Source: a virus (lineage: Duplodnaviria; Caudoviricetes). From it: a stretch of DNA of 50,840 nt. The stretch covers positions 1 to 50,840 of the IMG/VR virus record IMGVR_UViG_3300031862_000007. One strand, 5' to 3'. The stretch's first letter is position 1. Each line of letters opens with the position of its first letter. Shown piece after piece: positions 10,153 to 39,707 of the stretch. The notes beneath the pieces were generated by a model that saw only the letters and a list, made by a program, of their open reading frames with translations, ran no database searches and was not told where the DNA came from. The position numbers were made by a program, and so were the translations under genes.

Positions 10153-10167
10153 AAAATTTAAGGGAAA

Positions 10168-10191
10168 GGGGGAGGGCTAATGCCCTTCCCC
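10168..10191 (+). terminator. GC hairpin (terminator or processing site)
   Basis: gggggagggc-taat-gcccttcccc. Confidence 0.45.
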
Positions 10192-10213
10192 GAATCTTCT
10201 TAAGGAGTTTGAT

Positions 10214-10672
10214 ATGAGAAAAACTCGAATTCTGTTTTTGGCGATTTTCCTTATTTTCTCTTTATGTATTGTTTCAGATACGGCCCCAACGAGATACAAA
10301 TTTCTGACGAGCGATATCACGGTTCCGATCAACACAACTTGGGTCGAGGGGACAGACTTCACATCCAAAACAATCATGCTTGCCTATGCACAATCAGCAA
10401 CCCTGACTTTTTACGTCAAAGGAAACAATGCGGCATGTTCAAAAGATGTAATTTTCAAGTTTGTGGCGTTTGATTCTTTAAGGAACAAATGGGACACGAT
10501 TGATGCTCTGGGTGGATCGGGTGTGACAGTTACAGCTAATGGAACTACGGCAGTTCAGATAACAAAGCTTCTCTATGCTTATTTTGAGAAGATCAAGTTA
10601 TTGTCGGTTCAGAATCAGGAGACCGTAGCTGGATATACGGTTGATGTGAATGTCTCGATATTTATTAAGTGA
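10214..10672 (+). CDS. Beta-rich protein with N-terminal signal peptide
   Basis: MRKTRILFLAIFLIFSLCIVS leader; AGGAG RBS. Confidence 0.7.
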   Translation: MRKTRILFLAIFLIFSLCIVSDTAPTRYKFLTSDITVPINTTWVEGTDFTSKTIMLAYAQSATLTFYVKGNNAACSKDVIFKFVAFDSLRNKWDTIDALGGSGVTVTANGTTAVQITKLLYAYFEKIKLLSVQNQETVAGYTVDVNVSIFIK

Positions 10673-14256: not shown

Positions 14257-16077
14257 ATGTATCGGCACTCGGTGAAGGGACTCTATCGGTTCGACGGGAT
14301 CAAGAGCCTTGCCGGAACCTTAAACGAGCTTTCTGCGCCAACCGAAGTGCCTGAAGCTCAAGTTATAAAATGTCTTAATTTCAAGCCACATAAAGACGGA
14401 ATCAGCCGGGTCAAAAGGCCAGGATATTCGAAGTTTGACGCTTTCTATAACTTTGAGGGCCTTCCAATAAGAGGACTTTTTGATTACTGGGATGAGACTC
14501 CTGTCAATAGATATGAGGTCATTACCTCAAAAAAGATTTTTAGCCGTGCAGTAGGAGCAGGGTCGTGGTCAGAGCTTTATTCTCAAACTGCGGAGCTTGA
14601 ATTTCCAATCAAGCCCGTGGTTTATCTTCGGGAAAGACCGATTGTCGTCGGGTTTGACACAAACAGATTAGTTGAGCCGACAACGACTTATGGGCTCGGG
14701 ATTGTGGCCCCATCCTCAGCACCGACTTTAGCAGAAGGCGCAGCTGGCAGCCTCACCGGAACTTTTAAATATGTCGTGACCTACATGAGGAGCGGAAATT
14801 TTCAGGTCGAGAGCAATCCCTCTCCGGAATCCTCGCCGATAACTGTAACTGCAAAAAAAATCAACCTCTCCGCTATCCCAGTATCGACTGATCCGAAGGT
14901 GGACAAGAAGAGACTCTATAGGACGACCGCAGGTGGAGCAGTCTTTTTTTGGGTTGCCGACATAGCCAATGCCACAACGACCTATGAAGACAACATCACA
15001 GAACTTGGAGATGAAGTCAGTTATGATCGTTATCCGCCGCCCGTGGCGATATTCGCTGAAGTCTGGGATGACCGAGTTTGGTTTGTGCCGAAAAGTGATA
15101 GAAACCAACTTCACTTTACAAACAAGGGTTCAGCCGAAGAAATGGACAGCGATAACATCATCCAAGTCAAGGGAAAAGATTCTGATGAGATCATGGCGAT
15201 CAAGGCCTACATGGACTCGCTCTATATCTTCAAGCATAAGTCACCTTGGAGGCTGGATAAAATCGGCGAATCTTCTTACCAGTTGACAAAACTTCCATAT
15301 AATATCGGCACAGATGCCCCTGCTTCTGTTGCCGTCGGAGGGGGCCTCCTGATGTGGAAGTCAAAAAGGGGAATAGAGATTTTTAACGATCAAGTTATTT
15401 TTGATCCGCCGTTTTCCGATTTAATTCCCGAGACATTGGCGACTATAAATGAGGCCGCAATCGGCAAGGCCTTCGGGGAGGTGAATGAAAAGGAAGGCGA
15501 ATATTGGCTCGCCGTTCCTACTGGGGCATCAACGGAGCCAGACCTCGTTATAGTTTATGATTATATTGGGGGGAAAATAAGCAGATATATATTTGCCAAG
15601 AAATTAACTGCGATGCACAACATCAGGGATGGGAATTCAAAGCTTCAATTCATTACTGGAAGTTCAGACGGCAATCTTTATATTCAGGATTCAGGATTCA
15701 CGGATGACGGCACGCCGATTACGGCAAACTTCATGACAAAGCAGTATTGTTGTTTAACGAATGAGAAGGGGTTATGGAATGTCCTCCGCAGACTTTTTGT
15801 GGATTACATTTGTCCAACCGGAACAAGTGTTGTTTTGAAGATATACAAAAATAAGGAAAAGGTCGCAACTGTTTCAACTTCGCTTGCAGGGGTAACGCCG
15901 TCGGATTCGGACAAGGCCAGAGAGGTTATTTTAAAGCGCATAAACCTTGGATTATCTTGCGCTTATGTTTGTTTTGAGTTTAGCCATAATGAGACGCCGA
16001 CAGACGAAGTGAGAATCCTGCCGCCTGAAATTTATTTTAAGCGAAGGGTCTGGAAGTCTGACGTTAAGGCCGATTGA
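14257..16077 (+). CDS. Tail nozzle / DNA stabilisation protein (P22 gp10, T7 gp12-like)
   Basis: 606 aa, VKRPGY motif, beta-propeller-like repeats, follows the adaptor. Confidence 0.75.
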   Translation: MYRHSVKGLYRFDGIKSLAGTLNELSAPTEVPEAQVIKCLNFKPHKDGISRVKRPGYSKFDAFYNFEGLPIRGLFDYWDETPVNRYEVITSKKIFSRAVGAGSWSELYSQTAELEFPIKPVVYLRERPIVVGFDTNRLVEPTTTYGLGIVAPSSAPTLAEGAAGSLTGTFKYVVTYMRSGNFQVESNPSPESSPITVTAKKINLSAIPVSTDPKVDKKRLYRTTAGGAVFFWVADIANATTTYEDNITELGDEVSYDRYPPPVAIFAEVWDDRVWFVPKSDRNQLHFTNKGSAEEMDSDNIIQVKGKDSDEIMAIKAYMDSLYIFKHKSPWRLDKIGESSYQLTKLPYNIGTDAPASVAVGGGLLMWKSKRGIEIFNDQVIFDPPFSDLIPETLATINEAAIGKAFGEVNEKEGEYWLAVPTGASTEPDLVIVYDYIGGKISRYIFAKKLTAMHNIRDGNSKLQFITGSSDGNLYIQDSGFTDDGTPITANFMTKQYCCLTNEKGLWNVLRRLFVDYICPTGTSVVLKIYKNKEKVATVSTSLAGVTPSDSDKAREVILKRINLGLSCAYVCFEFSHNETPTDEVRILPPEIYFKRRVWKSDVKAD

Positions 16078-18665
16078 TGACATACGAAGAATTCATCGAA
16101 ATGCTACGGGTTCAGGGAAAGCCTGGGACAATAAAAGAATCAGACTTGGCCGATGGTGCAATAACGGCCAAGAAAATCAAAGTCGGTGCCTTGACTGCCG
16201 AGACGATAGCGGCCGGCACGATTACTGCGGATAAACTCAGTTTTAATCCCTACATTATAGGCACGAATGATCTTGATGACGTCGTAGATGGAACCTCTTA
16301 CGCTAAGATATTAAGCAGTGCAGCGCAAGGCGGCCTGGTTCTTTTGAGTCAGGCGGTGGGCAATATCGATAACATAGGTGACGGCACAACCTATAAAAAA
16401 GTTTTAGCGACAGATATTTCAGCCGGACACATTCTTTTATCTTCTGTAATCGGAACCTTAGACAATGTGGCCGATGGTACAAGTTATGGGAAGGTTGCCA
16501 TAACAGATATTCAAGCAGGCCATATTTTGCTGGCTACGGCAGTAGGAAGCTTAGACAACATTGCCGATGGGTCAAATTATGGCAAGGTAGCCTTAACCTC
16601 TATTAGCGCAGGAAAAATCATTGTAGCTGGTCTTGATAGTGGCGTAACTGCTCGGATGTTCCTTGATGGCACGACCAAAACCAACATAGAGGCCTGGCGG
16701 CATGCATCGGACGTAACCCTGATAGATGGGGGGGATATCTACACCAAGTCCATTACCGCCGTTAAATTAGATATAGCTACGATAACCGATAACTTGATTC
16801 TTAATCCATCCTTTGAGCAGGCGGGGGGATGGGCGGTGGTGGAGGAAAACGGGACGGCCACGTATTCCACTGCAGACAAAACAGAAGGGACATATAGCTT
16901 ATTATTGTCTGCTCCAGCCGTAGGCTATGGATGTCGAGCTATTCCACTTGTTCCAGGGGATAAGTATACTGTTAGGGTTAAACTTAAGGGGGCGACGGCC
17001 ACGACTATTGGTTTATATATAAGAATGAATGAAAAAACCACTTATCCTGCTGGGGATTATGTAACCGCGGATTTGCGGGATAGCCGCACAGATTTCGTTA
17101 CCGACGGTGCTGCGCCATCTACTTGGACGACTTACGAATATACTTATACGGTCCCAGCAAATATCTATTGGGGTTCTTTTTCTATCTATAACTGGACTGG
17201 CGGCCCTGCGGGTGGAATCTATATAGACGAGGCAGAGGCCAGGAAGCAGTTAGGTGCGGTGCATATTGAGGATGGGGTAATAAGTTTAACGAAGTTAACC
17301 TTTACGCCTTTCGTTATAGGCACAGATGACCTGGATGACATAGCTGAGGGCACGAACTACGGCAAGGTTTTAAAGGCTGACATCTCAGCGGGGCATATTC
17401 TACTCTCAGCATGCTCCGGCAATCTTGACAATATCGCAGACGGTTCAAATTATGGGAAGGTAGCATTAACTTCTATAAGTGCCGGTAAAATCATCGTGGC
17501 TGGTTTAGATAACGACGTGACAGCCAGGATGTTCGCTGATGCCACCACTAAGACCAACATCGAAGCCTGGAGGCATGCATCGGACGTAACCCTGATAGAC
17601 GGTGGGCACATCTACACGGGTACGGTTGTTGTTGGGGCGTTGGGAAGCGACGTAATCGCCAGGGTCTTTTCCGACGGTACGACCAAAACAAACATTGAGG
17701 CCTGGAGGCATGCATCGGATGTGACGCTGATAGACGGTGGGGATATCTATACGGGGACGGTAACCGCCAATAAAATCAGCGTCACTTCGCTCTCTTCTAT
17801 CCACGCAAACATGGGAACCATTACGGCAGGAAAAATTGATGTCGGAAACATAGAAATAAACGCCGATACGGAGAGAATCCTGATGGGTGCAGCGACCGCC
17901 CCGAAAACTGGCATTGGGGTATTTATCGGAAAAGATGTAGCTGACTATGAATTCAGATGTGGTAATCCTGCGGGTCATATGATGCATTGGGATGGTGCTA
18001 CTTTATGTCTTTATAAGGATGGAACTTATTTTGTTAACGCCCAGGAACTTGAGGAGGGGGCGGCCCGAGCCAGAATGTATATACAGGGTTCTCCCTATGC
18101 TGGTGGCTTTCAGGGTAAGCTGATGAACGATGAAACGGGATATTATTGGGCGGGAACGACATATAAAATAAGTCTCACTTTTTTGAGTGGAACGAAATAT
18201 ATGTTGACCATTGATACGGCTGTGCCAGGTGGCGGCGCAGGCAGTGGCGATAGTTGCTTTATTGCAAAAACAAGAATTTTAATGGCTGACGGGAATACTA
18301 AAAAAATAGCAGATATTCAAGTAGGAGATTATGTTTTAACAAGGAAATCTGAGACATCTCCGAAATTGGTAAGGGCAAGGGTTTTGAAATTTTATGAACA
18401 TCCAGAAACCGATATATTTACAGTAATTAATGATGTTCTTGTTGTAACGCCAAATCATAGAATGTTTATCAATGGGAAATGGCAGCGAGTCGAAACTCTT
18501 AAATTGGGAGACACTCTTCTTGATGATAAAAATAGGAAAATAGCGGTGAAATCTATAAAAGAACGAAGAGAGAAGGCTGAGAAGGTTTATAACTTGGAAA
18601 TTGAAAAATACAGGACATATTTTGCTAACGGTTTTTATGCCCACAATGCAAAAGACCCTGGATAA
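16074..18665 (+). CDS. Tail fibre/spike with internal repeats, CBM-like domain and C-terminal Hint domain
   Basis: Repeats LDNIADGSNYGKV and AWRHASDVTLIDGG (x3); NLILNPSFE CBM-like start; Hint motifs CFIAKTRILMADG, VTPNHRM, VYNLEI..YFANGFYAHN. Confidence 0.85.
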   Translation: MMTYEEFIEMLRVQGKPGTIKESDLADGAITAKKIKVGALTAETIAAGTITADKLSFNPYIIGTNDLDDVVDGTSYAKILSSAAQGGLVLLSQAVGNIDNIGDGTTYKKVLATDISAGHILLSSVIGTLDNVADGTSYGKVAITDIQAGHILLATAVGSLDNIADGSNYGKVALTSISAGKIIVAGLDSGVTARMFLDGTTKTNIEAWRHASDVTLIDGGDIYTKSITAVKLDIATITDNLILNPSFEQAGGWAVVEENGTATYSTADKTEGTYSLLLSAPAVGYGCRAIPLVPGDKYTVRVKLKGATATTIGLYIRMNEKTTYPAGDYVTADLRDSRTDFVTDGAAPSTWTTYEYTYTVPANIYWGSFSIYNWTGGPAGGIYIDEAEARKQLGAVHIEDGVISLTKLTFTPFVIGTDDLDDIAEGTNYGKVLKADISAGHILLSACSGNLDNIADGSNYGKVALTSISAGKIIVAGLDNDVTARMFADATTKTNIEAWRHASDVTLIDGGHIYTGTVVVGALGSDVIARVFSDGTTKTNIEAWRHASDVTLIDGGDIYTGTVTANKISVTSLSSIHANMGTITAGKIDVGNIEINADTERILMGAATAPKTGIGVFIGKDVADYEFRCGNPAGHMMHWDGATLCLYKDGTYFVNAQELEEGAARARMYIQGSPYAGGFQGKLMNDETGYYWAGTTYKISLTFLSGTKYMLTIDTAVPGGGAGSGDSCFIAKTRILMADGNTKKIADIQVGDYVLTRKSETSPKLVRARVLKFYEHPETDIFTVINDVLVVTPNHRMFINGKWQRVETLKLGDTLLDDKNRKIAVKSIKERREKAEKVYNLEIEKYRTYFANGFYAHNAKDPG

Positions 18666-18921: not shown

Positions 18922-19413
18922 ATGGACGGATTAGAAGGATTGTTCGGAGGGACGACGGGTGGTGCTGGAGCTGGGGCAATGGGCGCAGGAACGGCTGGGG
19001 CAATGGGCGCAGCGGGGGCAGGTTTTCCGTGGTTGCTTGCCATTCCTATTTTATCGAGCCTTATTCAAGCCCTGACTTCAAAATCTAAAGAACAGCAACA
19101 GCAGGAAAATGTCACTAACACACTGAGGATGCTGCAACAACTCGGGATAAAACAACCCTATCAAAGCAAATATACTCAAAAGCTCGACCCGATTATCGCT
19201 ATGGCCTTGGCAAATCAACTCAAAAGGACATCAAATTGGGGATGGCCGCAGGGAATGGGTATGGACACGGGACTTCTTGAGGCTTTTCTTCAAAGCATAA
19301 CAAGCCCTAGTTCATTGCTCACGCCGCAAGGAGCACAGAAGAAAACAGTATTTGGAGAGACTAATACTAATCCCATCACCTGGGGGATAACGCCTGGAAT
19401 ATTGGGAGGGTAA
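18922..19413 (+). CDS. Putative DNA-ejection (pilot) protein
   Basis: Gly/Ala-rich N-terminus followed by a hydrophobic helix, typical of podoviral ejection proteins. Confidence 0.6.
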   Translation: MDGLEGLFGGTTGGAGAGAMGAGTAGAMGAAGAGFPWLLAIPILSSLIQALTSKSKEQQQQENVTNTLRMLQQLGIKQPYQSKYTQKLDPIIAMALANQLKRTSNWGWPQGMGMDTGLLEAFLQSITSPSSLLTPQGAQKKTVFGETNTNPITWGITPGILGG

Positions 19414-19414
19414 A

Positions 19415-20407
19415 ATGGCTATCTATCAAGGAGATCAGGGAACACTCGGGGGTGGAACTTTCAAGCCCAAGCCGCCGCGGGATGTAGAATGTTTTAGTGA
19501 TACTGATTGCCCTACGGGTTATAAATGCAAAGCAGGCAAATGCGTAAAAATTGAAACACCGGCAGAAAAAACAATAGCTTGCATTGGAGGAATTTGTAAA
19601 GAGACTGATTACTCTACGCCCGAATTGATAGCCAGGTGTCGAGGAAAGAATGTCGGCGATAAATGTGGAATAACGGAAACGGGATGTAAAAATAGTGCAG
19701 AATGTCCCATTGGTTATGAATGTAAAAATGGTAAATGTGTGAAGATAACAGTTCCACCGCCTGAAGGGGGCGGGGGCGGGGGTTGTAAAGGAGGATACAA
19801 AAACACTTCCAATCTTCCTTGTCCCAAAGGGTATAAGACAACAGGCATAGGTGGAGAGCAATGGTGCTGCCCGGAAGAGCTTACGGCCGCAAGTGAGTTT
19901 AAGTGGAGCCCCGAAATTGAAGCTCTGATGAATAGAATCTTGGCGAAGGCCAATGAACTTTTAAACCAGCCTCGTGGGCTGTCCGATGAAGAGAGGCAGG
20001 CGATTTACAACCGTTCCTTTGAACAGATTAAGGGAATGGAGAGGCCAGCCATTCAATCACGTCTGGATGCGATCTCGAGAATAGGTATGCTTGGGAGCCC
20101 CTATGCTGAGAGGGAAGTCGAAGAAGTCCAGAGACAGACGCCGCAACTTCTTGCCACGACATCAAGAGACATAGCTATTGATGAGGCTAAACGTCGGTTC
20201 AGCGAACAGCAACAAGTCTATCAGACGGTCATGCAGATGTTAGGCCAGGGGATGGGCGGTGAACAGATTGTCGAAGCCTTAAATGCGGCAAGGAGAGGAG
20301 AGGGGACAAGCGCGCTTCAAATGATACTCCAATACTTCATGTCGTTATACGGGGGACAAAACAACGCATACTGGCAGGCCATTATAAACGCCCTCGCCGC
20401 TCAATAA
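19415..20407 (+). CDS. Putative ejection protein with Cys-rich repeats
   Basis: CFSDTDCPTGYKCKAGKCV and CKNSAECPIGYECKNGKCV repeats; helical Gln-rich C-terminus. Confidence 0.6.
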   Translation: MAIYQGDQGTLGGGTFKPKPPRDVECFSDTDCPTGYKCKAGKCVKIETPAEKTIACIGGICKETDYSTPELIARCRGKNVGDKCGITETGCKNSAECPIGYECKNGKCVKITVPPPEGGGGGGCKGGYKNTSNLPCPKGYKTTGIGGEQWCCPEELTAASEFKWSPEIEALMNRILAKANELLNQPRGLSDEERQAIYNRSFEQIKGMERPAIQSRLDAISRIGMLGSPYAEREVEEVQRQTPQLLATTSRDIAIDEAKRRFSEQQQVYQTVMQMLGQGMGGEQIVEALNAARRGEGTSALQMILQYFMSLYGGQNNAYWQAIINALAAQ

Positions 20408-20417
20408 GGAGGCTAAG

Positions 20418-21311
20418 ATGCCAGACTTCAGCAAATTTATCCCGTCCATAATGCCGTATATCGAGATGTATCTCAGGGGGGAGTTCACCAAAAGAGAGAT
20501 TATGGACCGGCTCAAGGCACAGCTTCAAGAATATGCGGCTTGGGGTGAGGAGCAGAGGAAGACAGGCAAGCAATCATTGCAGAACGAGATCATAAAGAAT
20601 CTCTACAATCCGGAATATTTCAAAGATAAGAATATGCCGGAGCTTGCTATTATGAATTATATCCAGAAGACAAATCCGCAACTTCTTGGTGAAACTCAAG
20701 TTCCGGCTGATATCGGACAGCAGTTGCAGGACGCAACAAACGCCCTGGCTCAAATCACAAAATTCAGAATGGCCGGGGAAGCGGTGCCGGATGAACTTCT
20801 CCAAAAGGTTTCGCAGTTTTTCGGGGAAAAGGCTCTTGGAGAAACAGCCCAGGATATCATCAAGCAGAAAGAAGGGGCAGCCGAAAGAGGGGTAAGGGGA
20901 AGGGAGATCGCAGTCCAAGAGGCTCTTGTCCCGATTAGGAAGGCAGAGGTAGGGCTAAGGGGAAAAGAGTTGGGGACGGAACTCGGCGAGATGACGGCGA
21001 AGGAGGCCAGGGTGAGACTTGCTCAGCTTGCAGAGGAGAGGAGAAAATATCAAGTTCAGTTAGCGGGGATCGACGAAAAATTTGAGCCTGAAAAATCAAA
21101 GGAGGCGAAATCGGTCCTCAGGGAGATCAAGGTTCAGGAGGATAAGATCAATTCCAAATTCTCAAAGGAATTCGATGCTGAATACAAGGCACTCGCAGAT
21201 GCAATCAAGGCAAAGGGCGCAACGATTAAGCATCTTGATACCGATGAGCAATTGAGATCTTATCTCATTGAGAACGGCTACAATATTGAGAAATTGAAAA
21301 AGTATTTCTAA
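20418..21311 (+). CDS. Putative ejection protein (helical)
   Basis: Coiled-coil composition; position between pilot and large ejection genes. Confidence 0.55.
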   Translation: MPDFSKFIPSIMPYIEMYLRGEFTKREIMDRLKAQLQEYAAWGEEQRKTGKQSLQNEIIKNLYNPEYFKDKNMPELAIMNYIQKTNPQLLGETQVPADIGQQLQDATNALAQITKFRMAGEAVPDELLQKVSQFFGEKALGETAQDIIKQKEGAAERGVRGREIAVQEALVPIRKAEVGLRGKELGTELGEMTAKEARVRLAQLAEERRKYQVQLAGIDEKFEPEKSKEAKSVLREIKVQEDKINSKFSKEFDAEYKALADAIKAKGATIKHLDTDEQLRSYLIENGYNIEKLKKYF

Positions 21312-24300
21312 TGAACGGCGAAAAATACGATTTTAGTTTTCTTGATGCCTGGAACCCCCAGGAACCAGCTCTTCCATCTGCGGCTGAAAAGCAGAAAGCT
21401 GGTCGGTTTGATTTTTCTTTTCTGGACAGCTGGACGCCTCAAAGAGTGGGGCCAGAAAGAAAACCGATAGAGCTAGAGAAAAAGCCGGGGCTTGGATTTG
21501 TCGTCGGCGAGACCCTCAAAGGAACGGGGCAGGATATAGTTCAGACTCTTAAAAATTTGCTAAAGCAAAGTGGACAATTTATGACTCATCAGGTTATGGG
21601 AATTCCTCAGCCGGAAGAAGAGGTGGCGAAATTTTATGCTCCTGTGCCAGCCAAAATTGAAGAAGCACCCAAAACGCCGCTGAGGGGAGTGCTCGAGGTG
21701 GGGAAAGGACTTGGAAAATTGGGCTATGAATATGGCTCATTTCCAGTAAAGGTTGCTATTAACCTTGCCAAACATCCAAGAGAGCAAATTGTCAATGATC
21801 CACTTGGAACTTTAATGTTTCTTAGTCTTGCCTTTGCACCAATTCGTGAAGCTTTAAAAGGGGAGCCGGGTCCGCCATTAACTACTGAAAGTTTGAACAA
21901 GGCTTTTGCTGAGGCAACGAAATTGGAACTTGAACCAAAATGGAAGATTACACCTGAAGTCATTACTCAGCAACTTGTGGATAGGTATAACACCGCACTC
22001 GGCGAATTCATGAAAACAAAAGAACTCCCTCAGGCCGCTACCCCAGAGCCGAGATTTTTAGCCACCGAGAAAGGAACCGTCATTCCAGCAGAGATGCCCG
22101 AGAGGGTTTCCATCCTGGCCCGATATAAGGAGGCAGAGGGTGTCAAACCCGGGATGGAGATCAATATCAAGCAGGAGGCTGATGGCTCTTTGACCGTAAG
22201 GACGGCAGGTCAAAAAGAAATCACGCCCGCCGCAGGAGCTGAGTATCCCTATGGCTTTAACGCAAAGGGGGAGAAGACGGTCAGGGAAATCTATGGGGCG
22301 ATGCAGAACTTCAAGGCTTTGACTGAGGATGGATGGCAAATTGATTATAATCCCGAGACACGAATCGCCAAGATCGTAGGAAAGACGGAGCCGATGAAGG
22401 GGACGGTCACTCAGGAAGGGAAGGTCATCTGGACGCCAGAAGTCAAACCGCCGATTGAACCTGTAAAAATGATAGAAACGCCAGCGCTTCAAGCGGAGAA
22501 ACCGGCGGGAATTGCCGCCAGGGTAGAAGTAGGAAAACCGGTAGTTCCGACCGTGACTCAGCCAAAGGTTAGAAAAGCACCAGTCTTCACAGATCCGCTT
22601 CTGCAAACGATCAATGAAATGGGGGGGATAAAACCCAATCCCGATTATCCCGCAGGAGAGCTTAGGAGATTGGTCCCGCCTTCGCTCATCAAGTCCAAGG
22701 GTATGCCGATGGATGAGCTGGCGACGGAACTCAATTCAAAGGGATATAACTTTTTGAATGACGGCGAGCTCTATGACCGACTCGCCGGGAAGAAAGCAAG
22801 AAAAGGCGAGATGACTAAGGAAGAGTGGCGGGCGACAAAAGAAGAAAAAACGCAAGCAGAAATAGAAAAGGCGGGGGAAGAGGGAAAAGTCCTTTATAGG
22901 CGTCCGCCACCGCCCACAGAAAGGCCTCCAACTGCCGTTAAACCCATTGTGACTGCGCCAGAACGAGAGATTAAGGGGGAGGCCCCTACCCCCCTACGCA
23001 CTCCCGAAACAAAACCTGAAATAGGGCCAAAAATAGTGGAAAAAGTAGAGCCGACTGAAATTCAATTCAATAAGTCTGAAAGGGTATCTCAAAGAAACAA
23101 TGAGTTGGTATCCGTAGATGTCGCCAAAATGGATGCCGCCTGGCAGAAGGACGAGAGTTTTTATATTAAACCTGGTGAAGAGGCAATCCCTGGACGCAGG
23201 GGCCAATTTGAAGAATTCGTAAGGACAGGACAACCTATAGAGGCCCCGAATGTCAGTATCGGGACTAAGGGGCAAATATCGTTTGGAGACGGTCGGCATC
23301 GGTTTGCCGTTCTTCGTGATATGGGAGCCAAAGAAGTTAAGGTTAGCGTTCCAAGAAATCAAGCCCAAGATTTTATTGATAGATTTTCGCCTGAGGCAAC
23401 GGCGAAGGTTGTTTCAAAAAGGGTCGAACCAAAAATAGAGCCAGCCAAGGCCGATGAAATTGAAAGGGGGATTGAAGATGCGATTTTGAACCGCAAGGAG
23501 TTTACGCCGGAGCAGAAGGCTTATCTTGAAGAACGGCAGGCTTATAAAAAGTATGAATTCGAGGAAAAGCCGCCTGAGGTTGAGGAAGAGATCGCCCCCG
23601 AAGTGGCCGCCCCACGAGAACGGCTTGTCAAAGTTACAATCAAAACTCCATCCGGGGATTTTGTCCAGGAGACGATGGAATCGTCAATCCCTAAAATCCA
23701 GAATTATGCCAGAAAGTTAAAGGTCGAGGATAAGATCAAGGTAGGAGAACCCTATATAGGGAAATGGAAAGATTATCTTCCACCTTCTCAAATCGAGACC
23801 TTCCTTCAAGAAGTGATGCGCGATGTTAAGACGCTCTCGCCGGACAAGTGGGAAAAGTTTGCCGGTTATCCATTCCTTCCCGAAGTCAAGCGTGTTTTCA
23901 AGGACCTGAAGTCAAAGCAGACGATCAAGCGACTTGTGACCAGGGAAGAGATCAAGAATGAGCTTAATAAAACGCCCGAGGGAAAAGTCGAGTGGATGTA
24001 TCTCGAGACTGAACGCCAACTCAAGGAGAAGATGAAGCCGACCTGGAAGAAGGCACTTGAGACGGCTAAGCGTGCCACTATAGACACAAGCGGAAATCTT
24101 AAAACCAAGCTTTTAAAGGAATTAGGGGATGAAGGACGAAATGCGGTTATCCAGCATGATCTTGTTGCGGGAACTTCGGCCAAGGCTGAGCGGCTTTTTG
24201 AAAGAGCAGAAAAAGAAATCTATGGCGGCCTGAGCAAAGAAGAAGAGGGACTTCTCAATAGAGCCATTCAATCAAGGCGGACCATCGCCATCAGCAAATA

Positions 24301-26563
24301 TAAGCCAGAAGTCAAGCATCCGATGGGGCTCACGGGCGAGGAGCATGCGGCCTTTCTTGAAAAGATTCCTGCGAAAATCCAAGGCAAGGCAGACCTCTAT
24401 TTTGCCGAAATGAGAAAGGCACTCGATAGGCTTCACGATGAAGGGCTTTTGACCGAAGAGGCATACAAGGACTTAGCCAGCAAGGGAGATTATTCGCCCC
24501 GAAGATTCATCCAATACATTGACCCCGAGAATACCTATACCGTAGGTGGAAGAACGATCACGGTTCCCGACAGCGGCATCAAGGCTCTGGACGAAGGGAG
24601 TTTGCGAGTCATGGAGATTGACTCCCGCAATCTTCTCTCCAATGTGATCTCAAGGACAGAGGGAAGAATTTTCAGAAACAATGCCAATAAAGCGCTCTAT
24701 GAGCTGGCCGACAAAATCCCAGGGAATGGAATCGTGGAGAAGGCCGAGGTCTATAAGGTCACAAAAACTGGAAGGCCAAAGTATGAAACTGCCAAAGGCG
24801 GATACACGAAACTCAAGGCCGTCATTGACGGCCAGACAAAAGACATGATCATGCCGGATGAGTTTGCCAAGGAGTGGATAACCCGAGATCCTCTTGTCAA
24901 TCAGACAATGGCGAACATCATCGGCTGGCTCTCCATGAGCAAGCCTTTAAAAGCTTTTGCAACCGGAATAAACCCAGGATTCGCCATCGGCAATATGCCC
25001 CGTGACATCGCACATATCTGGATAACCACGAATGAATACTCAAGTTTCCTGCCAAAATACGGGGCTCAGATGATGCACGATTTAGGGACTGTAGCAAAGG
25101 ACGCTATCACAAGAGGAAAGAGGTGGCAGGATTATATTGACGAAGGCGGGGGGATGAATTTCCTTACCTATCAGGGAAGGCCATTCCATACTTCGATTAA
25201 AGGAATAAAGGGATTGCAGAAGGTTCTTGGTTGGGTAGGGGAGACATCTGAAGTCTGGTCAAGACTTGCCCTAAGGGAACGTGCTTTAAGGAATGGGAAG
25301 TCACCGACTGAGGCAACATGGACCGCTCGGAATTACCTTGATTTTAACCAAGGTGGAAATGTCATCAAGGCTTTTGATACAGGAATTCCCTACCTCAACG
25401 CTTCCGTCCAGGCGACACGAGGGTTATTCCGGGCCGTTGCCGACAGACCAGGTCAGACAATCTGGAAGCTCGGGCAAATCGGGACCCTGGCGAGCGGCCT
25501 TTACCTTGCCAACCGTCTCGGAAATAAAAAGTGCTGGGAAGCCGTGCCGGACAGGGAAAAGATCAATAATTTCATCATCACGACACCCTGGAGTGTTAAG
25601 GATAAAAACGGGAACGAAAGGCATTTTTACTTCAAGATTGCCAAAGACCAGACTCAGAGAATCTTTTGCTCAATTTTTGAGAACTTGATGGCGAAGGCTA
25701 TTGGCGAGAAAGTCAATGGTGATCAGATCGCTGGGGCCGTCTCCGATTTTATCCCCATTGTGCCGGAGCAGAATATCCCACCGACGATTGACGCTTTTCT
25801 CGGCTACATGAAAAACAAAGACTTCTGGAAAAATGAAGATATCTGGAAGGGACCGAAGGTCACGCCGAGGGAAGAATACACGGTCTATACAGACCCCGCC
25901 ATGAAGAAACTCGGCCAATTGACGGGGCTTTCTCCAGAGAGAACGGAGTATGCCTTGAGTCAGATTTTTACTCGAGGAAATATTTATACGGCTCTTGTGA
26001 GTGGTGGCTTAAACGCAATTCTCGGAGGTCAGTCGGAGGCTGACAAAAGAAAATTAACGATGGAGTTTATAACCAAGGCCGTGCCGGACATCAAGAGGGT
26101 TTTCAATATTACTCCGCCTTATTCTCAGACAGAGATAAAGCAGGCCAAGGAAGTGGCAACCGAAGAATCGACAAGAAAGTTCAAACAGGAACGCGAGCTT
26201 AATGAGATGGCTTCCCAATATTACCGCAAACTTTATGATGAGAAAACACGAGATGAAAAGCTGCTCGGCGAGATCAGGGCTTTTATTCGCCAGCAGCCAG
26301 CCGAAGACAAGGATAGGATGATCAGGTGGTTCAATAATTATGGAAAGGTTTATGACATTCCCGATCGTTCCTGGTGGTTGACGATTGCGGGGATGCCGCC
26401 CGAAACAAGGGCGACGGTTTTCTGGAATAAATATGTCGAGTCAAGCGAGGAAGAAAGGCAGGAGCTTTTGAAGCTGGCTCGAAAAGTGCCGGAGATCATG
26501 TCAGACAGATTCAAGAGGCGATTAAATTTATTGATGTCAAAGTGGGAAAATGAGAACAAATAG
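21311..26563 (+). CDS. Large polyvalent / DNA-ejection protein with ParB-like and LPD38-like domains
   Basis: 1750 aa; GDGRHRFAVL ParB-like motif; C-terminal FYFKIAK...NKDFW...GLSPERTEY resembling LPD38. Confidence 0.7.
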   Translation: MNGEKYDFSFLDAWNPQEPALPSAAEKQKAGRFDFSFLDSWTPQRVGPERKPIELEKKPGLGFVVGETLKGTGQDIVQTLKNLLKQSGQFMTHQVMGIPQPEEEVAKFYAPVPAKIEEAPKTPLRGVLEVGKGLGKLGYEYGSFPVKVAINLAKHPREQIVNDPLGTLMFLSLAFAPIREALKGEPGPPLTTESLNKAFAEATKLELEPKWKITPEVITQQLVDRYNTALGEFMKTKELPQAATPEPRFLATEKGTVIPAEMPERVSILARYKEAEGVKPGMEINIKQEADGSLTVRTAGQKEITPAAGAEYPYGFNAKGEKTVREIYGAMQNFKALTEDGWQIDYNPETRIAKIVGKTEPMKGTVTQEGKVIWTPEVKPPIEPVKMIETPALQAEKPAGIAARVEVGKPVVPTVTQPKVRKAPVFTDPLLQTINEMGGIKPNPDYPAGELRRLVPPSLIKSKGMPMDELATELNSKGYNFLNDGELYDRLAGKKARKGEMTKEEWRATKEEKTQAEIEKAGEEGKVLYRRPPPPTERPPTAVKPIVTAPEREIKGEAPTPLRTPETKPEIGPKIVEKVEPTEIQFNKSERVSQRNNELVSVDVAKMDAAWQKDESFYIKPGEEAIPGRRGQFEEFVRTGQPIEAPNVSIGTKGQISFGDGRHRFAVLRDMGAKEVKVSVPRNQAQDFIDRFSPEATAKVVSKRVEPKIEPAKADEIERGIEDAILNRKEFTPEQKAYLEERQAYKKYEFEEKPPEVEEEIAPEVAAPRERLVKVTIKTPSGDFVQETMESSIPKIQNYARKLKVEDKIKVGEPYIGKWKDYLPPSQIETFLQEVMRDVKTLSPDKWEKFAGYPFLPEVKRVFKDLKSKQTIKRLVTREEIKNELNKTPEGKVEWMYLETERQLKEKMKPTWKKALETAKRATIDTSGNLKTKLLKELGDEGRNAVIQHDLVAGTSAKAERLFERAEKEIYGGLSKEEEGLLNRAIQSRRTIAISKYKPEVKHPMGLTGEEHAAFLEKIPAKIQGKADLYFAEMRKALDRLHDEGLLTEEAYKDLASKGDYSPRRFIQYIDPENTYTVGGRTITVPDSGIKALDEGSLRVMEIDSRNLLSNVISRTEGRIFRNNANKALYELADKIPGNGIVEKAEVYKVTKTGRPKYETAKGGYTKLKAVIDGQTKDMIMPDEFAKEWITRDPLVNQTMANIIGWLSMSKPLKAFATGINPGFAIGNMPRDIAHIWITTNEYSSFLPKYGAQMMHDLGTVAKDAITRGKRWQDYIDEGGGMNFLTYQGRPFHTSIKGIKGLQKVLGWVGETSEVWSRLALRERALRNGKSPTEATWTARNYLDFNQGGNVIKAFDTGIPYLNASVQATRGLFRAVADRPGQTIWKLGQIGTLASGLYLANRLGNKKCWEAVPDREKINNFIITTPWSVKDKNGNERHFYFKIAKDQTQRIFCSIFENLMAKAIGEKVNGDQIAGAVSDFIPIVPEQNIPPTIDAFLGYMKNKDFWKNEDIWKGPKVTPREEYTVYTDPAMKKLGQLTGLSPERTEYALSQIFTRGNIYTALVSGGLNAILGGQSEADKRKLTMEFITKAVPDIKRVFNITPPYSQTEIKQAKEVATEESTRKFKQERELNEMASQYYRKLYDEKTRDEKLLGEIRAFIRQQPAEDKDRMIRWFNNYGKVYDIPDRSWWLTIAGMPPETRATVFWNKYVESSEEERQELLKLARKVPEIMSDRFKRRLNLLMSKWENENK

Positions 26564-32000: not shown

Positions 32001-32247
32001 CGTCGGCTTCCTCCGGCGGATCGCAACTCGGCTTCACGATAAAAAAATTCCCGCCCTCCAAACCAATCGTTATCTCGTCCACCTCTCTCGGGTCTTCGTT
32101 CTGCTCCCTGCACAGCTCAACCCATTCATCCCAATGGGCGAGGAAAACCTTACCAGCACGGCGGTCCATTAGTTTTCTCCAAAATATTTTTGCATATAAC
32201 GCCGGTTCATTTCTGCATGAAGCCAACGATGGTAACCAAGAGAGCAA
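31993..32247 (-). CDS. Hypothetical protein (probable start MDRR near 32169)
   Basis: Coupled to the stop of the HNH gene. Confidence 0.5.
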   Translation of the reverse strand: MLSWLPSLASCRNEPALYAKIFWRKLMDRRAGKVFLAHWDEWVELCREQNEDPREVDEITIGLEGGNFFIVKPSCDPPEEADDE

Positions 32248-32714
32248 ATTAATAAATTTGAATTATGATTATCGGCCTTATTTCCATTGATATGATGAGT
32301 CATTTCACCCCGTTTTAAATATCGACCTAAAGCCTTTTCTGCAATTAATCTATGTTCTTGAATATATCCAGTTGCATTAACGAAAGGATGATTAGGACAC
32401 CAGATTAAAATATAACCCCGTGATCTTATCTTGCCGCCCTTCCAACCAGGGCATTTGTCCCCCGTCTGCTTTTGCCGAGCCAACGCCAATGCCGCTTTTG
32501 TTTGTGGTAACATCGGTTTTCCAAAATTAGGACTATTAACCCCTTTGTGTGTTTGACTATATTTATTAAGATTAGATATTACGAGTGGGGAAACTTGTCT
32601 TTTTTTATTGGCTTCAAGTAGGATGGATTTTACATGAGGCGCCATGGGTTTCCCATACATAGGATTATTTTTTCCAACGTTCCAATGTCTTTCAATTCGG
32701 TGATCAGTCATCAA
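32169..32714 (-). CDS. HNH homing endonuclease with NUMOD3-like repeats
   Basis: GKNNPMYGK, NSPNFGK, WKGG, HHINGNKADNHNSNL. Confidence 0.85.
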   Translation of the reverse strand: MMTDHRIERHWNVGKNNPMYGKPMAPHVKSILLEANKKRQVSPLVISNLNKYSQTHKGVNSPNFGKPMLPQTKAALALARQKQTGDKCPGWKGGKIRSRGYILIWCPNHPFVNATGYIQEHRLIAEKALGRYLKRGEMTHHINGNKADNHNSNLLICSLGYHRWLHAEMNRRYMQKYFGEN

Positions 32715-37915: not shown

Positions 37916-38287
37916 TTACCGGCAGAGACCTGTCTTGGTAAATCCGATTTCTTTCCAATGATGAGAAATATGGTGTGATTGTGATAAAAATAAACTTAGA
38001 TTCGTCGGCCTATCGTCGTTTGTTATCCCGTTTTTATGATGGACAATTTCTTTTGGTAAAATAAATCTGCCGATTATTTTTTCCATGATTAAATGTGATC
38101 GTCGGACATAACCATTCTTGTCGGCATATGGATGATTTATAGACTTGACAAGGATATAGCCGCTTTTATCCGATGTAACTCCTCCCCTCCAACGATGATT
38201 TAGTTTTCCTAATTTTGATAAACCGTTATTATTATAATTTTTGTAGTTGACATAATATTCCTTATGTAACCCATATGTTATTCGCAC
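37916..38287 (-). CDS. HNH endonuclease
   Basis: NHRWRGG, HPYA..NGYV, VHHKNGITNDDRPTNL. Confidence 0.8.
   Translation of the reverse strand: MRITYGLHKEYYVNYKNYNNNGLSKLGKLNHRWRGGVTSDKSGYILVKSINHPYADKNGYVRRSHLIMEKIIGRFILPKEIVHHKNGITNDDRPTNLSLFLSQSHHISHHWKEIGFTKTGLCR
38245..38272 (-). other. Second dif-like site, inverted relative to 353/42407
   Basis: - strand GGGTTACATAA-GGAATA-TTATGTCAACT. Confidence 0.65.
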
Positions 38288-38487
38288 AGTTCTCCCAACT
38301 CTATTCCTAAAGAATAACTTATGCTCTTCAATGTTTCAAGCTCAGGATTCTTTGATATCCCATTTTCAAGCCGAGAGATGTGTACTCGACTGCATCCAGC
38401 TACTTTTGCAAGATAAGCTTGGCTCCAGCCCAATTCTCTTCTTTTTTTCTTTATTTTTTTGCCGATGTTGGTTCTTGAATATTTCAT
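38278..38487 (-). CDS. XRE-family HTH regulator (Cro-like)
   Basis: IKKKRRELGWSQAYLAKVAGCSRVHISRLENG. Confidence 0.9.
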   Translation of the reverse strand: MKYSRTNIGKKIKKKRRELGWSQAYLAKVAGCSRVHISRLENGISKNPELETLKSISYSLGIELGELCE

Positions 38488-38495
38488 TTCTACCC

Positions 38496-38587
38496 TTATG
38501 TTATATTATGTTATAACAATTTCATAAAAAGTCAAGTAGTTTTTTTAAATATTTTTCTATTGACACTCAAAAAAATCGTGATAAAAT
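38496..38587. promoter_or_regulatory. Divergent promoter/operator region
   Basis: + strand TTGACA(38560)-N16-TAAAAT with extended TG; - strand TTGACT near 38535; tandem TTATGTTATA repeats and TGTTATAACA palindrome at 38496-38518. Confidence 0.6.
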
Positions 38588-38608
38588 AAAATAGATGAGG
38601 AGGAAAAT

Positions 38609-39298
38609 ATGAGGAAAATAATATTTATTGTCATCCTGATTCTATCTACCTTGTCTTGTGCGACCGTGAGGGAATATCGGGCCAGATACAAACAGGACAT
38701 GAACGCCCGAGACGAAAAACTTTTCGGGACCCATCGTAGTAACTCAACGACTTACTCGCCGCTTAACGATCCTGCGCTCGGCTTGCTCCTCGGTTTGTAT
38801 ATGTTAAGCCCACATCAAGAAACATATGCTTACTCGCCGTACTTTCCGCTTTTCCCATATTATAATTCTTTTTCGAGCCTCCTGGCCTATGAAAGTGAGC
38901 TGCAAGATATCAACGACATGGAGATGTTCAAGCTTGAAATGAATACGCGGCGAATCATGGATGAGCTGAGAAGGGCGCGAGAACGGGAGGCAAGGCAACT
39001 CAGAATGGAAGTAGAGGATCTGACCGATCAATTGAAACGTACGCAAAATCAACTTGACTTTTCTTCTTTAAGTAAATGGCGATCTGAAAAATTGGACTCG
39101 GCCTGGTTGTTTAAGGAAAGTGAATCGAAAAAGCCTGACCTTAGCTTCCTGGATAAGATACCACCCGCCAAAGAAGTCTATGATTTTTCTTTTCTGGATA
39201 ATTGGAAGCCTAAAAAACCCGGGTCCTGGGGTGGAGTTGGGGCCGGTGCAGTAGGCTCTGTCCGATTCTTAGCAATTCCGAAGGTCAGGAAAGACTGA
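38609..39298 (+). CDS. Lipoprotein with ejection-protein-like motifs (candidate superinfection exclusion factor)
   Basis: Lipobox TLSC(17); GAGGAGG RBS; YDFSFLDNWKP motif shared with the 1750-aa protein. Confidence 0.75.
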   Translation: MRKIIFIVILILSTLSCATVREYRARYKQDMNARDEKLFGTHRSNSTTYSPLNDPALGLLLGLYMLSPHQETYAYSPYFPLFPYYNSFSSLLAYESELQDINDMEMFKLEMNTRRIMDELRRAREREARQLRMEVEDLTDQLKRTQNQLDFSSLSKWRSEKLDSAWLFKESESKKPDLSFLDKIPPAKEVYDFSFLDNWKPKKPGSWGGVGAGAVGSVRFLAIPKVRKD

Positions 39299-39475
39299 TC
39301 AGAGGCCCAGTAAAACTTTTTTCCCTCGCCTCCTCTTCAGCCAGGAACTCAGAATCATCGTCAGGAGTTGCGTCAGAGGTAAGCCGTTCTCCTGTGCTAT
39401 TCTGACCAGCTCTTGCTTCATCCACTTCTTATTTTTCGGCAACCGGAATTGAATGTCATGCTTTTCTTTGCTCAT
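39299..39475 (-). CDS. Ribbon-helix-helix (Arc-like) regulator, 58 aa, absent from the ORF track
   Basis: MSKEKHDIQFRLPKNKKWMKQELVRIAQENGLPLTQLLTMILSSWL... Confidence 0.65.
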   Translation of the reverse strand: MSKEKHDIQFRLPKNKKWMKQELVRIAQENGLPLTQLLTMILSSWLKRRRGKKVLLGL

Positions 39476-39707
39476 TTTTTACTTCCTTTTTTAATTTAAC
39501 AAAATAAATTTGAAGCGGCATAGAAAAGTTGGGATGGTGGAAAACGGGGCTGATATGTACTATCTCTCCGAATCTTTTTTCAATGTTTTCTTTTTCACTA
39601 TAAGCAGGCATGATAATTCTATCGGCCAACAGTTTCATGTTTGCTGTCCTACGCATATATTTTACGATTTTAGTATAGTCTAACTCGCCACGAATATTTT
39701 TACTCAT
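39456..39707 (-). CDS. Hypothetical early protein
   Basis: AGGAG RBS; coupled to neighbours. Confidence 0.55.
   Translation of the reverse strand: MSKNIRGELDYTKIVKYMRRTANMKLLADRIIMPAYSEKENIEKRFGEIVHISPVFHHPNFSMPLQIYFVKLKKEVKNEQRKA

Follow-up and report, generated by a model that had tools for sequence, protein, structure and literature searches.

The window (the whole 50,840-nt stretch analysed, IMG/VR record IMGVR_UViG_3300031862_000007, Caudoviricetes) carries a gene for a putative lipoprotein, P0003, and a gene for a predicted large virion protein, P0001 (Table 1). The N-terminus of P0003 consists of MRK, IIFIVILIL and STLS-C17, fitting the signal features of a bacterial lipoprotein (a signal peptidase II substrate), and its lipobox is MRKIIFIVILILSTLSC (Cys17). 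The lipobox reported in the initial annotation holds across the family, as a hydrophobic stretch and the Cys are kept in every member with an intact N-terminus. A PROSITE-like lipobox pattern matches 26 of 43 family sequences, and those without a match (17) are fragments, products of alternative start calls or sequences with Pro at −4, which still have [TI]SC. In E. coli, lipoproteins with Ala at +2 are sorted to the outer membrane; by these rules, which may not be those of the host, the Ala at +2 of P0003 would send it there. The one pointer to the host is a Desulfofustis phage with 32% identity, from which the host's identity and its possession of an outer membrane can be assigned only provisionally. 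Sequence and AF2 model agree that the hydrophobic parts of P0003 are the signal peptide and one short helix at residues 55–66. The tail that follows the predicted stalk is modelled at low confidence with short helical turns at the motifs described below, and residues 204–222 have a pLDDT below 50 (shallow alignment).

Upstream of the gene, the promoter proposed earlier was recovered at the level of sequence (TTGACA-16-TAAAAT, 11/12 positions) and is a candidate only. The stretch was found in four sediment DNA runs and in no listed RNA run, a result that is silent on expression. Wherever context could be seen, the lipoprotein gene adjoins a Cro/CI-type HTH regulator; in two relatives (G001 and L025), a homologous HTH gene follows it immediately, in the same orientation. 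An integrase was not found among the scanned ORFs. The lipoprotein could not be placed in any family with Pfam, PHROGs, PADLOC, NCBIfam or the ESM Atlas, and the best matches in PADLOC-DB were coiled-coil noise (E 0.004–0.065) in three of five family members tested, the other two having none.

Table 1 Coordinates of the two genes, their motifs and neighbouring features in the window
Feature	Position	Strand	Remark
Three genes upstream of P0001 (163, 330, 297 aa)	18922..21311	+	Ejection-protein candidates by position only
Large virion protein P0001, 1750 aa	21311..26563	+	Related to LPD38-type polyvalent/ejection proteins
P0001 N-terminal motif copy 1, YDFSFLDAWNP	21326..21358	+	
P0001 N-terminal motif copy 2, FDFSFLDSWTP	21407..21439	+	
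Cro/CI-type HTH regulator (HTH_3, E 1.2e-14)	38278..38487	-	Divergent from lipoprotein gene
Promoter match TTGACA-16-TAAAAT, sigma-70-like	38560..38587	+	11/12 positions, TG present; consensus match only
Shine-Dalgarno-like GAGGAGG	38597..38603	+	5 nt before ATG of lipoprotein gene
Lipoprotein gene P0003, 229 aa	38609..39298	+	Long form of unnamed phage lipoprotein family
Signal peptide with lipobox	38609..38659	+	Cys17 codon 38657-38659
Predicted stalk, long alpha-helix, residues 84-168	38858..39112	+	AF2; block mean pLDDT 93-98 at residues 91-150
Tail cassette	38942..39288	+	Short-form alleles in near-identical strains lack it or have other sequence instead
P0003 motif copy 1, LDFSSLSKWRS	39053..39085	+	Identical in L005
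P0003 motif copy 2, PDLSFLDKIPP	39134..39166	+	Resembles P0012/P0016-type large-protein motifs
P0003 motif copy 3, YDFSFLDNWKP	39179..39211	+	Copy of phage's own large-protein motif
Gly-rich end of P0003, GGVGAGAVGSVRFLAIPKVRKD	39227..39295	+	

Hypervariable N-termini of the large virion protein

The P0001 gene sits among the late genes, in the order portal, tail genes, the 163-, 330- and 297-aa genes, the 1750-aa gene and, directly after it, an amidase endolysin. Family searches gave no assignment for the 163-, 330- and 297-aa proteins, and a Pfam search of P0001 returned nothing at E <= 0.01. Seven P0001 homologues (P0009, P0013–P0015 and P0017–P0019) carry a precomputed PF18857 (LPD38) assignment. 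In the available text of the relevant studies, LPD38-bearing giant proteins were found in virions and proposed as ejection proteins (bioRxiv 10.64898/2026.04.10.717836), and LPD38-type polyvalent proteins such as phi24B gp47 were predicted to reside in virions (PMC5512222; Iyer et al. 2017).

The large ORF begins MNGEKYDFSFLDAWNP...RFDFSFLDSWTP, and nearly all of its relatives start with a short motif repeated 2–5 times in tandem. Within the first 150 aa, the best internal 8-residue repeat beats all 300 shuffles in 14 of 20 large proteins, and in 13 of those 14 the repeat lies within the first 90 aa. This N-terminus is hypervariable. The large protein L016 is 87% identical to P0012 and 85% identical to P0011 over about 1060 C-terminal residues, and despite these similar bodies the motif types of the three differ (FSTEELFPS, DLDWLNSIPPK and DFSFLANSLPG, respectively). 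The repeats fit the description of short linear motifs, being at most 12 aa long, repeated, evolutionarily plastic and outside folded domains. Our literature search found no description of tandem N-terminal motifs in LPD38 proteins, within the portions of the sources available to us; the supplementary domain alignments of PMC5512222 might cover them. An AF2 model of P0001 residues 1–420 from a 6-row alignment had a mean pLDDT of 50, with residues 1–143 below 50; docking of the motifs in cis was absent from this model, which is too weak to argue from. Complex prediction of the 330-, 297- and 163-aa proteins against large-protein residues 1–60 scored 0.00, a value from 3-row alignments without controls that counts neither way.

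Motif copies in the lipoprotein family

The tail of P0003 aligns to large-protein residues 4–47, and the motif strings and positions given in the initial annotation were confirmed: YDFSFLDAWNP and FDFSFLDSWTP in P0001, YDFSFLDNWKP in P0003 and two weaker copies beside the latter. In a six-frame regular-expression scan of the whole window, DFSFLD occurred three times, only at 21329, 21410 and 39182, and the five occurrences of the relaxed pattern D[FLIMV]S[FSLIMV]L[DSEN] all fell in the large-protein and lipoprotein ORFs. Scored with BLOSUM62 over 11-residue windows, the best pairing of the mature lipoprotein with large-protein residues 1–110 gives 55, a value reached by 0 of 2000 lipoprotein shuffles (mean 23.1, maximum 38). 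The likeness extends to the DNA. The region encoding FDFSFLDSWTP shares 18 nt with 39181–39198, as had been noted before, and five consecutive codons (GAT TTT TCT TTT CTG) are common to 21410–21424 and 39182–39196; the chance of five identical codons is ~0.005, as the product of per-residue values under the window's own codon usage. Because the identity between the two genes is at the DNA level, it argues for sequence transfer rather than convergence, and the motif copies in the lipoprotein share common descent with the large-protein gene. An exact back-translated scan of viral contigs for DFSFLDxWxP found three loci, all short spurious frames.

A second resemblance fared differently. The initial annotation had likened GGVGAGAVG..FLAIP, at the Gly-rich end of P0003, to the 'pilot-like' protein encoded at 18922. 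The string is present and unique in six frames, whereas the idea that the tail copies that protein is unsupported: BLASTP gave no match, the string is not kept in the related lipoprotein L005 (FDKVP) and homologues of the 163-aa protein vary among themselves in their Gly-rich N-termini. By-eye alignment suggests as a possible source the GGEIGQIIG box, which follows the motifs in other large proteins and appears verbatim in the tail of the lipoprotein P0039.

Motif copies recur and mix across the lipoprotein family, whose members are mostly 104–176 aa. The initial annotation had asked whether homologous lipoproteins carry the motif; all six long forms and two short forms with loop insertions carry large-protein N-terminal motif types, often mixed. 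With the first 20 residues of each sequence cut before scoring, 8 of 43 family sequences, all six long forms among them, match one of 10 large-protein N-termini better than any of 40 internal control segments; the 7 of these 8 that were compared with shuffles beat all 200. That cut removed the motif-like starts, seen by eye, of the fragments P0047 and P0049. The count of 43 leaves out the window's own shorter gene call (P0004), two entries that duplicate the products of the L005 and L006 ORFs (P0005 and P0007) and P0050, whose likeness to the family is limited to the signal peptide and roughly the first 30 mature residues. The lipoprotein of the window finds its best match, among the large proteins compared, in its own large protein. 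The P0039 tail combines the L016 type with the L017 type including the downstream linker (52.5% identity over 80 aa to a large-protein N-terminus, E 3e-16), P0037 combines the L016 and window types, and L005, the closest long-form relative of P0003, combines the L017 and window types; in P0034 and P0041 the P0012 type is inserted in an internal loop. Apart from the window's own, the long forms come from short contigs or from database proteins without a contig. The core PPD[IV]W..W[ST]P of many short forms, considered as half a window-type motif, was rejected with scores of 22–24, within the range of the controls.

In sediment metagenomes, near-identical strains differ in whether they have the tail. 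Contigs spanning the long form were assembled independently in runs X1 and X2, with 0 and 2 differences. Run X1 also holds a joint of 38941 to 39289 with 38 other letters between, and in run X4 a 2860-nt contig joins 38859 to 39289 with 150 other letters between. Such coming and going of tails among close strains, together with the DNA-level identity that points to transfer and with terminal KD codons common to long and short alleles, as insertion predicts, could also reflect a non-adaptive by-product, in which illegitimate or short-homology recombination between the large-protein 5′ end and the lipoprotein 3′ end yields functionless, transient chimeric ORFs. We regard this as quite unlikely. 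At least five distinct tail or loop compositions occur, all in frame and with similarity concentrated on the motifs while the linkers diverge; copies sit at two protein positions, tail and internal loop; motif copy 1 is identical in the window and L005 despite 57% identity overall (BLASTP); and the long form's independent assembly in two runs likewise speaks against a transient chimera.

Because 35 of the 43 sequences, most of them short forms, show no motif copy above controls, the conserved core of the family must have another function. Only two genomes hold both genes: the window, which has a copy, and G001, which has a short form and no copy. A second copy of the phage's own large-protein motif was found only in the window among six genomes or records with the large protein, and not in G001, G006, G007, G008 or the Desulfofustis phage. 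The lipoprotein family is absent from G006 (99% complete) and G008 (98% complete), and the large protein is absent from G004 and G005, both fragments (58% and 51% complete). Searches of genome contigs with the lipoprotein alignment and with the large-protein alignment each gave 0 loci, tblastn of P0003 against the phage collection gave nothing, and viral-contig scans for the lipoprotein gave L004, G001 and L025 only.

A candidate periplasmic decoy

Our preferred reading, which we consider evenly poised, is that the lipoprotein brings about superinfection exclusion as a decoy or trap in the periplasm. We infer that P0003 is expressed, lipidated and placed in the envelope, that the motifs bind a partner and that exclusion follows. 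It would be exported and lipid-anchored, facing the periplasm, with a helical stalk of ~85 residues followed by a flexible tail. This tail would have been captured in frame from the N-terminal 'address' region of the phage's giant virion-packaged protein, a region of 2–5 tandem copies of a short linear motif that changes fast between related phages. An invader with a matching motif type would eject its internal proteins into the envelope and meet the tethered copies there, which would either vie with it for the motif's partner or be built into a joint assembly with it. In both cases the DNA-entry conduit would be left incomplete, and mimicry would thereby give superinfection exclusion. A tail with several motif types would shut out several rival lineages.

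The architecture fits tethered display because the lipobox is conserved, the helix at residues 84–168 is confidently predicted and the tail is of low confidence, and the HTH-adjacent site counts in favour of a decoy because prophage-expressed exclusion genes often lie there. Exclusion by mimicry, first put forward in the initial annotation, is partly supported: the check proposed there, whether homologous lipoproteins carry the motif and whether it tracks the ejection protein, comes out in its favour for the long forms, while short forms are mostly without a copy and the same-genome pairing is n=1.

The same copies could serve a functional but non-defensive role, as a shared short peptide that directs proteins to the envelope or binds a partner such as a host periplasmic factor, peptidoglycan or a membrane. 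Each protein would use it to localize itself or in some step of the phage's own cycle, with no competition involved. An envelope role is expected of the two proteins alike; the motifs, which are short and contain many aromatic and acidic residues, lie in low-confidence, probably flexible regions; and the short-form core, the family majority, must function independently of motifs. A generic localization signal should, however, be conserved, and here the type differs between large proteins 85–87% identical elsewhere; moreover, tails mix types, some of them absent from the same genome's large protein, and near-identical strains do without the tail. We judge such a shared peptide unlikely.

Alternatively, the N-terminal motifs may be capsid- or portal-targeting packaging signals of the large protein. 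Their presence in the lipoprotein would then be unrelated to DNA entry; its precursor might, for example, sequester rivals' packaging machinery within the cell. The large protein would have to be packaged, phage-specific motifs fit co-evolution with a phage partner, and cargo of HK97-fold shells is known to bear tandem N-terminal targeting peptides. This possibility seems very unlikely, as the conserved export signal and lipobox would put the tail outside the compartment in which capsids assemble.

A broader extension of the decoy reading is that the lipoprotein family forms an updatable, protein-level record of rivals' address cassettes, which would be acquired by recombination, displayed as multi-specific periplasmic decoy arrays and drive the turnover of ejection-protein N-termini. 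We advance this only tentatively and think it rather doubtful; if true, it would amount to an arms race of copied enemy keys, waged in the bacterial envelope by means of short linear motifs. If the decoy reading itself is true, it would represent a new principle of phage–phage competition, in which a dedicated binder gives way to displayed copies of assembly or address motifs taken from the invader itself, and the tandem N-terminal motifs of LPD38-type giant ejection proteins would be a specificity determinant. The decoy would then give a sequence-defined handle on how giant proteins leave the virion and cross the envelope or build a conduit, mixed-type tails would point to the phage lineages that compete with one another within shared sediment hosts, and the logic of copying in order to recognize could be reused for narrow, programmable blocks to phage entry in laboratory strains.

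Comparison with known systems

Llp of T5 and Cor of phi80, N15 and T1 are small phage lipoproteins that prevent a second infection by acting on the host receptor. The proposed target of P0003 differs, being ejected phage proteins rather than the host receptor, and a sequence relation to Llp or Cor was not detected in Pfam or PHROGs. According to the available text on Ltp of Streptococcus phage TP-J34, that protein comprises a lipid anchor, a spacer and an effector domain and blocks DNA injection (PMC3952083). P0003 is like Ltp as there described in being a phage-encoded lipoprotein in what would be the lysogeny/regulatory region and, by prediction, in its anchor–spacer–effector layout. It is unlike Ltp in having no sequence relation to it, with 0 Pfam families, 0 PHROGs and no NCBIfam/PADLOC match. 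It differs also in its effector: that of Ltp, in the same text, is a folded repeat domain and not a copy of its target, whereas the P0003 tail consists of the target's own motifs and is probably flexible. Homology to the Ltp repeat domain was not found in P0003, whose AF2 model is a single long helix with a flexible tail.

The accessible account of P22 SieA has it blocking the ejection-protein conduit, with escape mapping to the ejection proteins (PMC10883804). In that account SieA, which is encoded by a podovirus with a P22-like portal, excludes related phages at the ejection conduit, much as P0003 would. Unlike SieA, P0003 is not a polytopic inner-membrane protein, having just its signal peptide and one short hydrophobic helix, and its specificity would come from the copied motifs.

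P0001, for its part, is like LPD38-type proteins such as phi24B gp47, as far as the available text describes them, in its homology to PF18857 carriers and its place among late genes; it is unlike them, as there described, in the hypervariable tandem N-terminal motifs seen here (PMC5512222; bioRxiv 10.64898/2026.04.10.717836). In the literature searched, we found no report of an exclusion lipoprotein that mimics ejection-protein motifs. By copying short motifs that evolve quickly and lie in disordered regions, viruses of eukaryotes compete for a partner. The lipoproteins described here are comparable in that short, fast-evolving motifs in disordered regions are copied, and differ in what is copied and how: eukaryotic viruses mimic host motifs, whereas the phage copies its own and its rivals' virion motifs, by DNA transfer.

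Motif copies in the lipoprotein and their genomic setting

The initial annotation had proposed that the 229-aa lipoprotein copies motifs from the start of the 1750-aa large protein of the same phage, and its motif strings and coordinates were all correct when the window sequence was read again. A six-frame scan of the window revealed DFSFLD only three times, twice at the start of the large protein and once in the lipoprotein. The best 11-residue match between the two proteins scored 55, compared with a maximum of 38 among 2000 shuffles, and BLASTP aligned lipoprotein residues 177-205 with large-protein residues 7-47, spanning two motifs that keep their order in both proteins. The two genes share an identical run of five codons (21410-21424 and 39182-39196), with a chance probability of ~0.005 as the product of the window's codon-usage values, which argues that the copy arose by DNA transfer and not by convergence. 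The lipobox, promoter-like site, Shine-Dalgarno sequence and divergent HTH neighbour described for the lipoprotein gene were each found.

A second proposed likeness, between the lipoprotein's Gly-rich end plus FLAIP and the 163-aa protein (annotated as pilot-like), was not supported: the strings are unique in the window to these two proteins, but BLASTP yielded no match. A related lipoprotein, L005, has FDKVP in place of FLAIP, and the Gly-rich stretches differ among homologues of the 163-aa protein. As an alternative, the Gly-rich end may descend from a GGEIGQIIG box that other large proteins carry downstream of their motifs and that recurs verbatim in the tail of the lipoprotein P0039; for the window protein, this origin is suggested by a by-eye alignment only.

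The window is a complete, linear IMG/VR virus record of 50,840 bp (CheckV 100%), and its DNA is present in sediment metagenomes. The right arm lies mostly on the minus strand, and no integrase was found among the scanned ORFs. The closest named phage, Desulfofustis phage LS06-2018-MD01, shares 32% identity over a conserved part of the large protein. A self-cleaving tail fibre or needle is a possible role for the 863-aa late protein. The 330-aa protein (homologues at L016:7541-8614 and L017:7934-8923) comprises a Cys-rich, probably disulfide-bonded N-terminal half that is unalignable among relatives, a Gly run and a conserved C-terminal half (56% identity to the L017 homologue over residues 161-327); its hypervariable half adjoins the hypervariable motif region. 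Beside the lipoprotein gene, summed contig depth was 3-16x that of the flanks in each of four sediment runs and variant contigs were numerous, which indicates that the 58-aa gene at this site is common to many co-occurring phages. Judged by eye, we take its product to resemble a ribbon-helix-helix regulator.

Features of the window
Arm, order	Feature	Coordinates	Strand	Remarks
Left, 1st	P22-like portal			PF16510
Left, 2nd	Tailspike-like protein			Beta-helix
Left, 3rd	Internal virion protein match			phrog_511 'internal virion protein'
Left, 4th	863-aa late protein	16074-18665	+	CBM_4_9, residues 240-366; C-terminal Hint/PT-HINT, 737-858, E 1e-16
Left, 5th	163-aa protein	from 18922		
Left, 6th	330-aa protein	19415-20407	+	
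Left, 7th	297-aa protein	from 20418		
Left, 8th	1750-aa large protein (P0001)	21311-26563	+	SFGDGRHRFAVLRDMG segment at ~23080-23400
Left, last listed	Amidase_3 endolysin			
Right	Replication organiser, exonuclease, RecT-like protein			
Right	69-aa Cro/CI-type HTH			
Right	HNH endonuclease (early region)	32169-32714	-	One of the two HNH genes is directly downstream of the HTH gene
Right	HNH endonuclease (early region)	37916-38287	-	
	229-aa lipoprotein (P0003)	38609-39298	+	
	Interval of raised contig depth	39284-39488		
	58-aa gene adjoining the lipoprotein gene	39299-39475	-	Pfam: weak SAP match only

Exchangeable N-terminal motifs of the large proteins

The large protein had no Pfam match and is homologous to large proteins carrying LPD38 (PF18857). 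This domain occurs in phi24B gp47, which has been detected in virions and proposed to be an ejection protein (bioRxiv 10.64898/2026.04.10.717836). We compared the best 8-residue repeat in the first 150 aa of 20 distinct large proteins with 300 shuffles each. The repeat beat all shuffles in 14 of the 20 proteins, within the first 90 residues in 13 of these and at 103-125 in P0014, with scores of 34-44 versus 17-31 in internal control segments. Repeats in P0016 and P0015 were marginal (7/300 and 20/300 shuffles reached the score), and the test detected none in the first 150 aa of L027, P0017, P0018 or P0019.

Tandem motif types at large-protein N-termini
Large protein	Motif type
Window, P0008	DFSFLDxWxP
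P0011	DF[SR]FL[AS]NSLPG
P0012	DL[DG][WF]LxxIPPK
L016 (virus record G001)	FSTEE[LI]F
L017	PPSGFxLD
L018	IGERFLxW
P0009	DYSW[LI]xxLKP
L028	DQFxWLDG
L030-L039 group	[RK]EIGPY, 4-5 copies
L038	S[QE]YIKEPE
Desulfofustis phage	[FI][VI]PA[QS]x[FY]LS

Over ~1060 C-terminal residues, the L016 protein shares 87% identity with P0012 and 85% with P0011, yet the three proteins have three motif types; P0016 has a near window-type motif although its body is nearest to L027. Motif type thus does not track the protein body, indicating that the N-terminus is a repeated, rapidly exchanged cassette. An extra domain of ~100 residues (...GPGFLGTLKRPDG.VSTELS...), with no Pfam family, lies between N-terminal motif copies in L016 (9530-10000) and L028 (6278-6900). 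Another segment, of ~110 residues (...SFGDGRHRFAVLRDMG...), had no Pfam match and is presumably ParB-like; it is present in P0001 and P0010 and absent from the otherwise 97% identical P0008, and is a domain-sized insertion/deletion polymorphism.

The lipoprotein family and its variable tail

The lipoprotein family has no name, and Pfam, PHROG, NCBIfam and PADLOC provided no assignment for the window member. Relatives comprised 4 proteins from a word-indexed search, 8 metagenome loci and 34 representatives from an exhaustive profile search (E <= 0.001); viral records yielded three in all (L004, G001 and L025) and the bacterial genome collection none. Most members have 104-176 aa and share a lipobox signal peptide, the conserved segment LGLLLGLY, a variable region rich in Pro and Tyr, and a helix at the C-terminus that ends ...RIIDELKRxxKD. 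Six are long forms by C-terminal extension (window, L005, L006, P0024, P0037 and P0039), whereas a seventh long member, P0027, owes its length to an extended helix alone. AF2 modelling of the window protein (34-row alignment) predicted with confidence a helix at 84-168 (block mean pLDDT 93-98 at residues 91-150) and, after it, a low-confidence tail in which residues 179-183 and 194-197, the motif sites, form short helical turns. In G001 (L024 10001-10650) and L025 (~9980-10640) the lipoprotein gene lies directly upstream of the homologous HTH gene and both share a strand, whereas the two genes are divergent in the window, so the module has been inverted. P0050, a database protein of 351 aa, shares with the family only the signal peptide, lipobox and ~30 first mature residues, and its remaining 300 aa are unrelated; the anchor module thus seems to serve other cargo as well.

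Contigs of four sediment runs were compared with window positions 38300-39500. Contigs spanning the long form showed 0 differences in run X1, which may be the source sample, and 2 in X2. A second X1 allele has 38 letters in place of 38942-39288, giving a short form that ends ...RRIIDELKRAK-KD, and a 2860-nt X4 contig, with both flanks matching closely, has 150 other letters in place of 38860-39288; the terminal KD codons are common to the alleles. The tail is therefore real and not an assembly chimera, and has been gained or lost among near-identical strains.

We scored 43 lipoprotein sequences, some rows having been dropped beforehand, against the N-terminal 110 aa of 10 large proteins; as controls we took 40 internal segments of 110 aa from these large proteins (control maxima 24-39). 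Eight of the 43, including all six long forms, scored above every control, and for the seven other than the window 0/200 shuffles reached the observed score.

Lipoproteins scoring above every control
Lipoprotein	Score	Best-matching type
Window	55	Own large protein
L005	61	L017
L006	49	P0012
P0024	41	P0012
P0034	49	P0012
P0037	42	L016; also 40 to window type
P0039	55 and 54	L016 and L017
P0041	46	P0012

In P0034 and P0041 the copy lies in the internal Pro/Tyr-rich loop, not the tail. Over 80 residues, the P0039 tail is 52.5% identical to the start of the L017 large protein (E 3e-16), with the alignment continuing into the post-motif linker AAEKVLGGEIGQI. Types are mixed within several single tails; the window copies resemble three variants: its own type, P0012/P0016-like DLSFLDKIPP, and DFSSLSKW. 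The test set by the initial annotation, that homologous lipoproteins carry motifs tracking the ejection protein, was thus borne out in the long forms, but 35 of the 43 sequences had no copy above controls. Both genes occur in two genomes only, the window (long form, own motif) and G001 (short form), the other long forms coming from 1.7-3.1 kb contigs or database proteins without contig context. Of six records that encode a large protein, the window alone repeats its own motif elsewhere; a second FSTEELF was absent from G001 (91% complete), and the lipoprotein family was absent from G006 (99% complete) and G008 (98% complete).

A possible tethered decoy

The very fast motif turnover in the large proteins and the mixing of types within single tails fit phage-phage conflict better than a housekeeping role. 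We therefore prefer to read the lipoprotein as a tethered decoy that would cause superinfection exclusion, a reading with roughly even chances of being right. A predicted lipid anchor, a helix of ~85 residues (by arithmetic, a straight length of roughly 12-13 nm) and copied motifs in a flexible array would suit peptide display in the periplasm, the compartment into which an incoming podovirus releases its internal proteins. The decoy could compete for the partner of the motif, in our opinion more likely a co-ejected phage protein than a host protein because motif types change so easily; it could also co-assemble with incoming N-termini as a dominant-negative subunit. We infer the lipoprotein's expression, export and lipidation, as well as its partner and the exclusion phenotype.

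The literature searched, as listings, abstract and text passages, provided no account of tandem hypervariable N-terminal motifs in these giant proteins or of a lipoprotein capturing them. The presence of motif copies in the lipoprotein is solid. Exclusion lipoproteins and membrane proteins targeting DNA entry are known; mimicry via captured target motifs would be a new principle, and we rate the proposed function about as likely as not. P22 SieA, which blocks the ejection-protein conduit (PMC10883804), and Ltp, a lipoprotein built as anchor, spacer and effector (PMC3952083), are precedents; in the abstract and passages covered, neither is described as copying its target.
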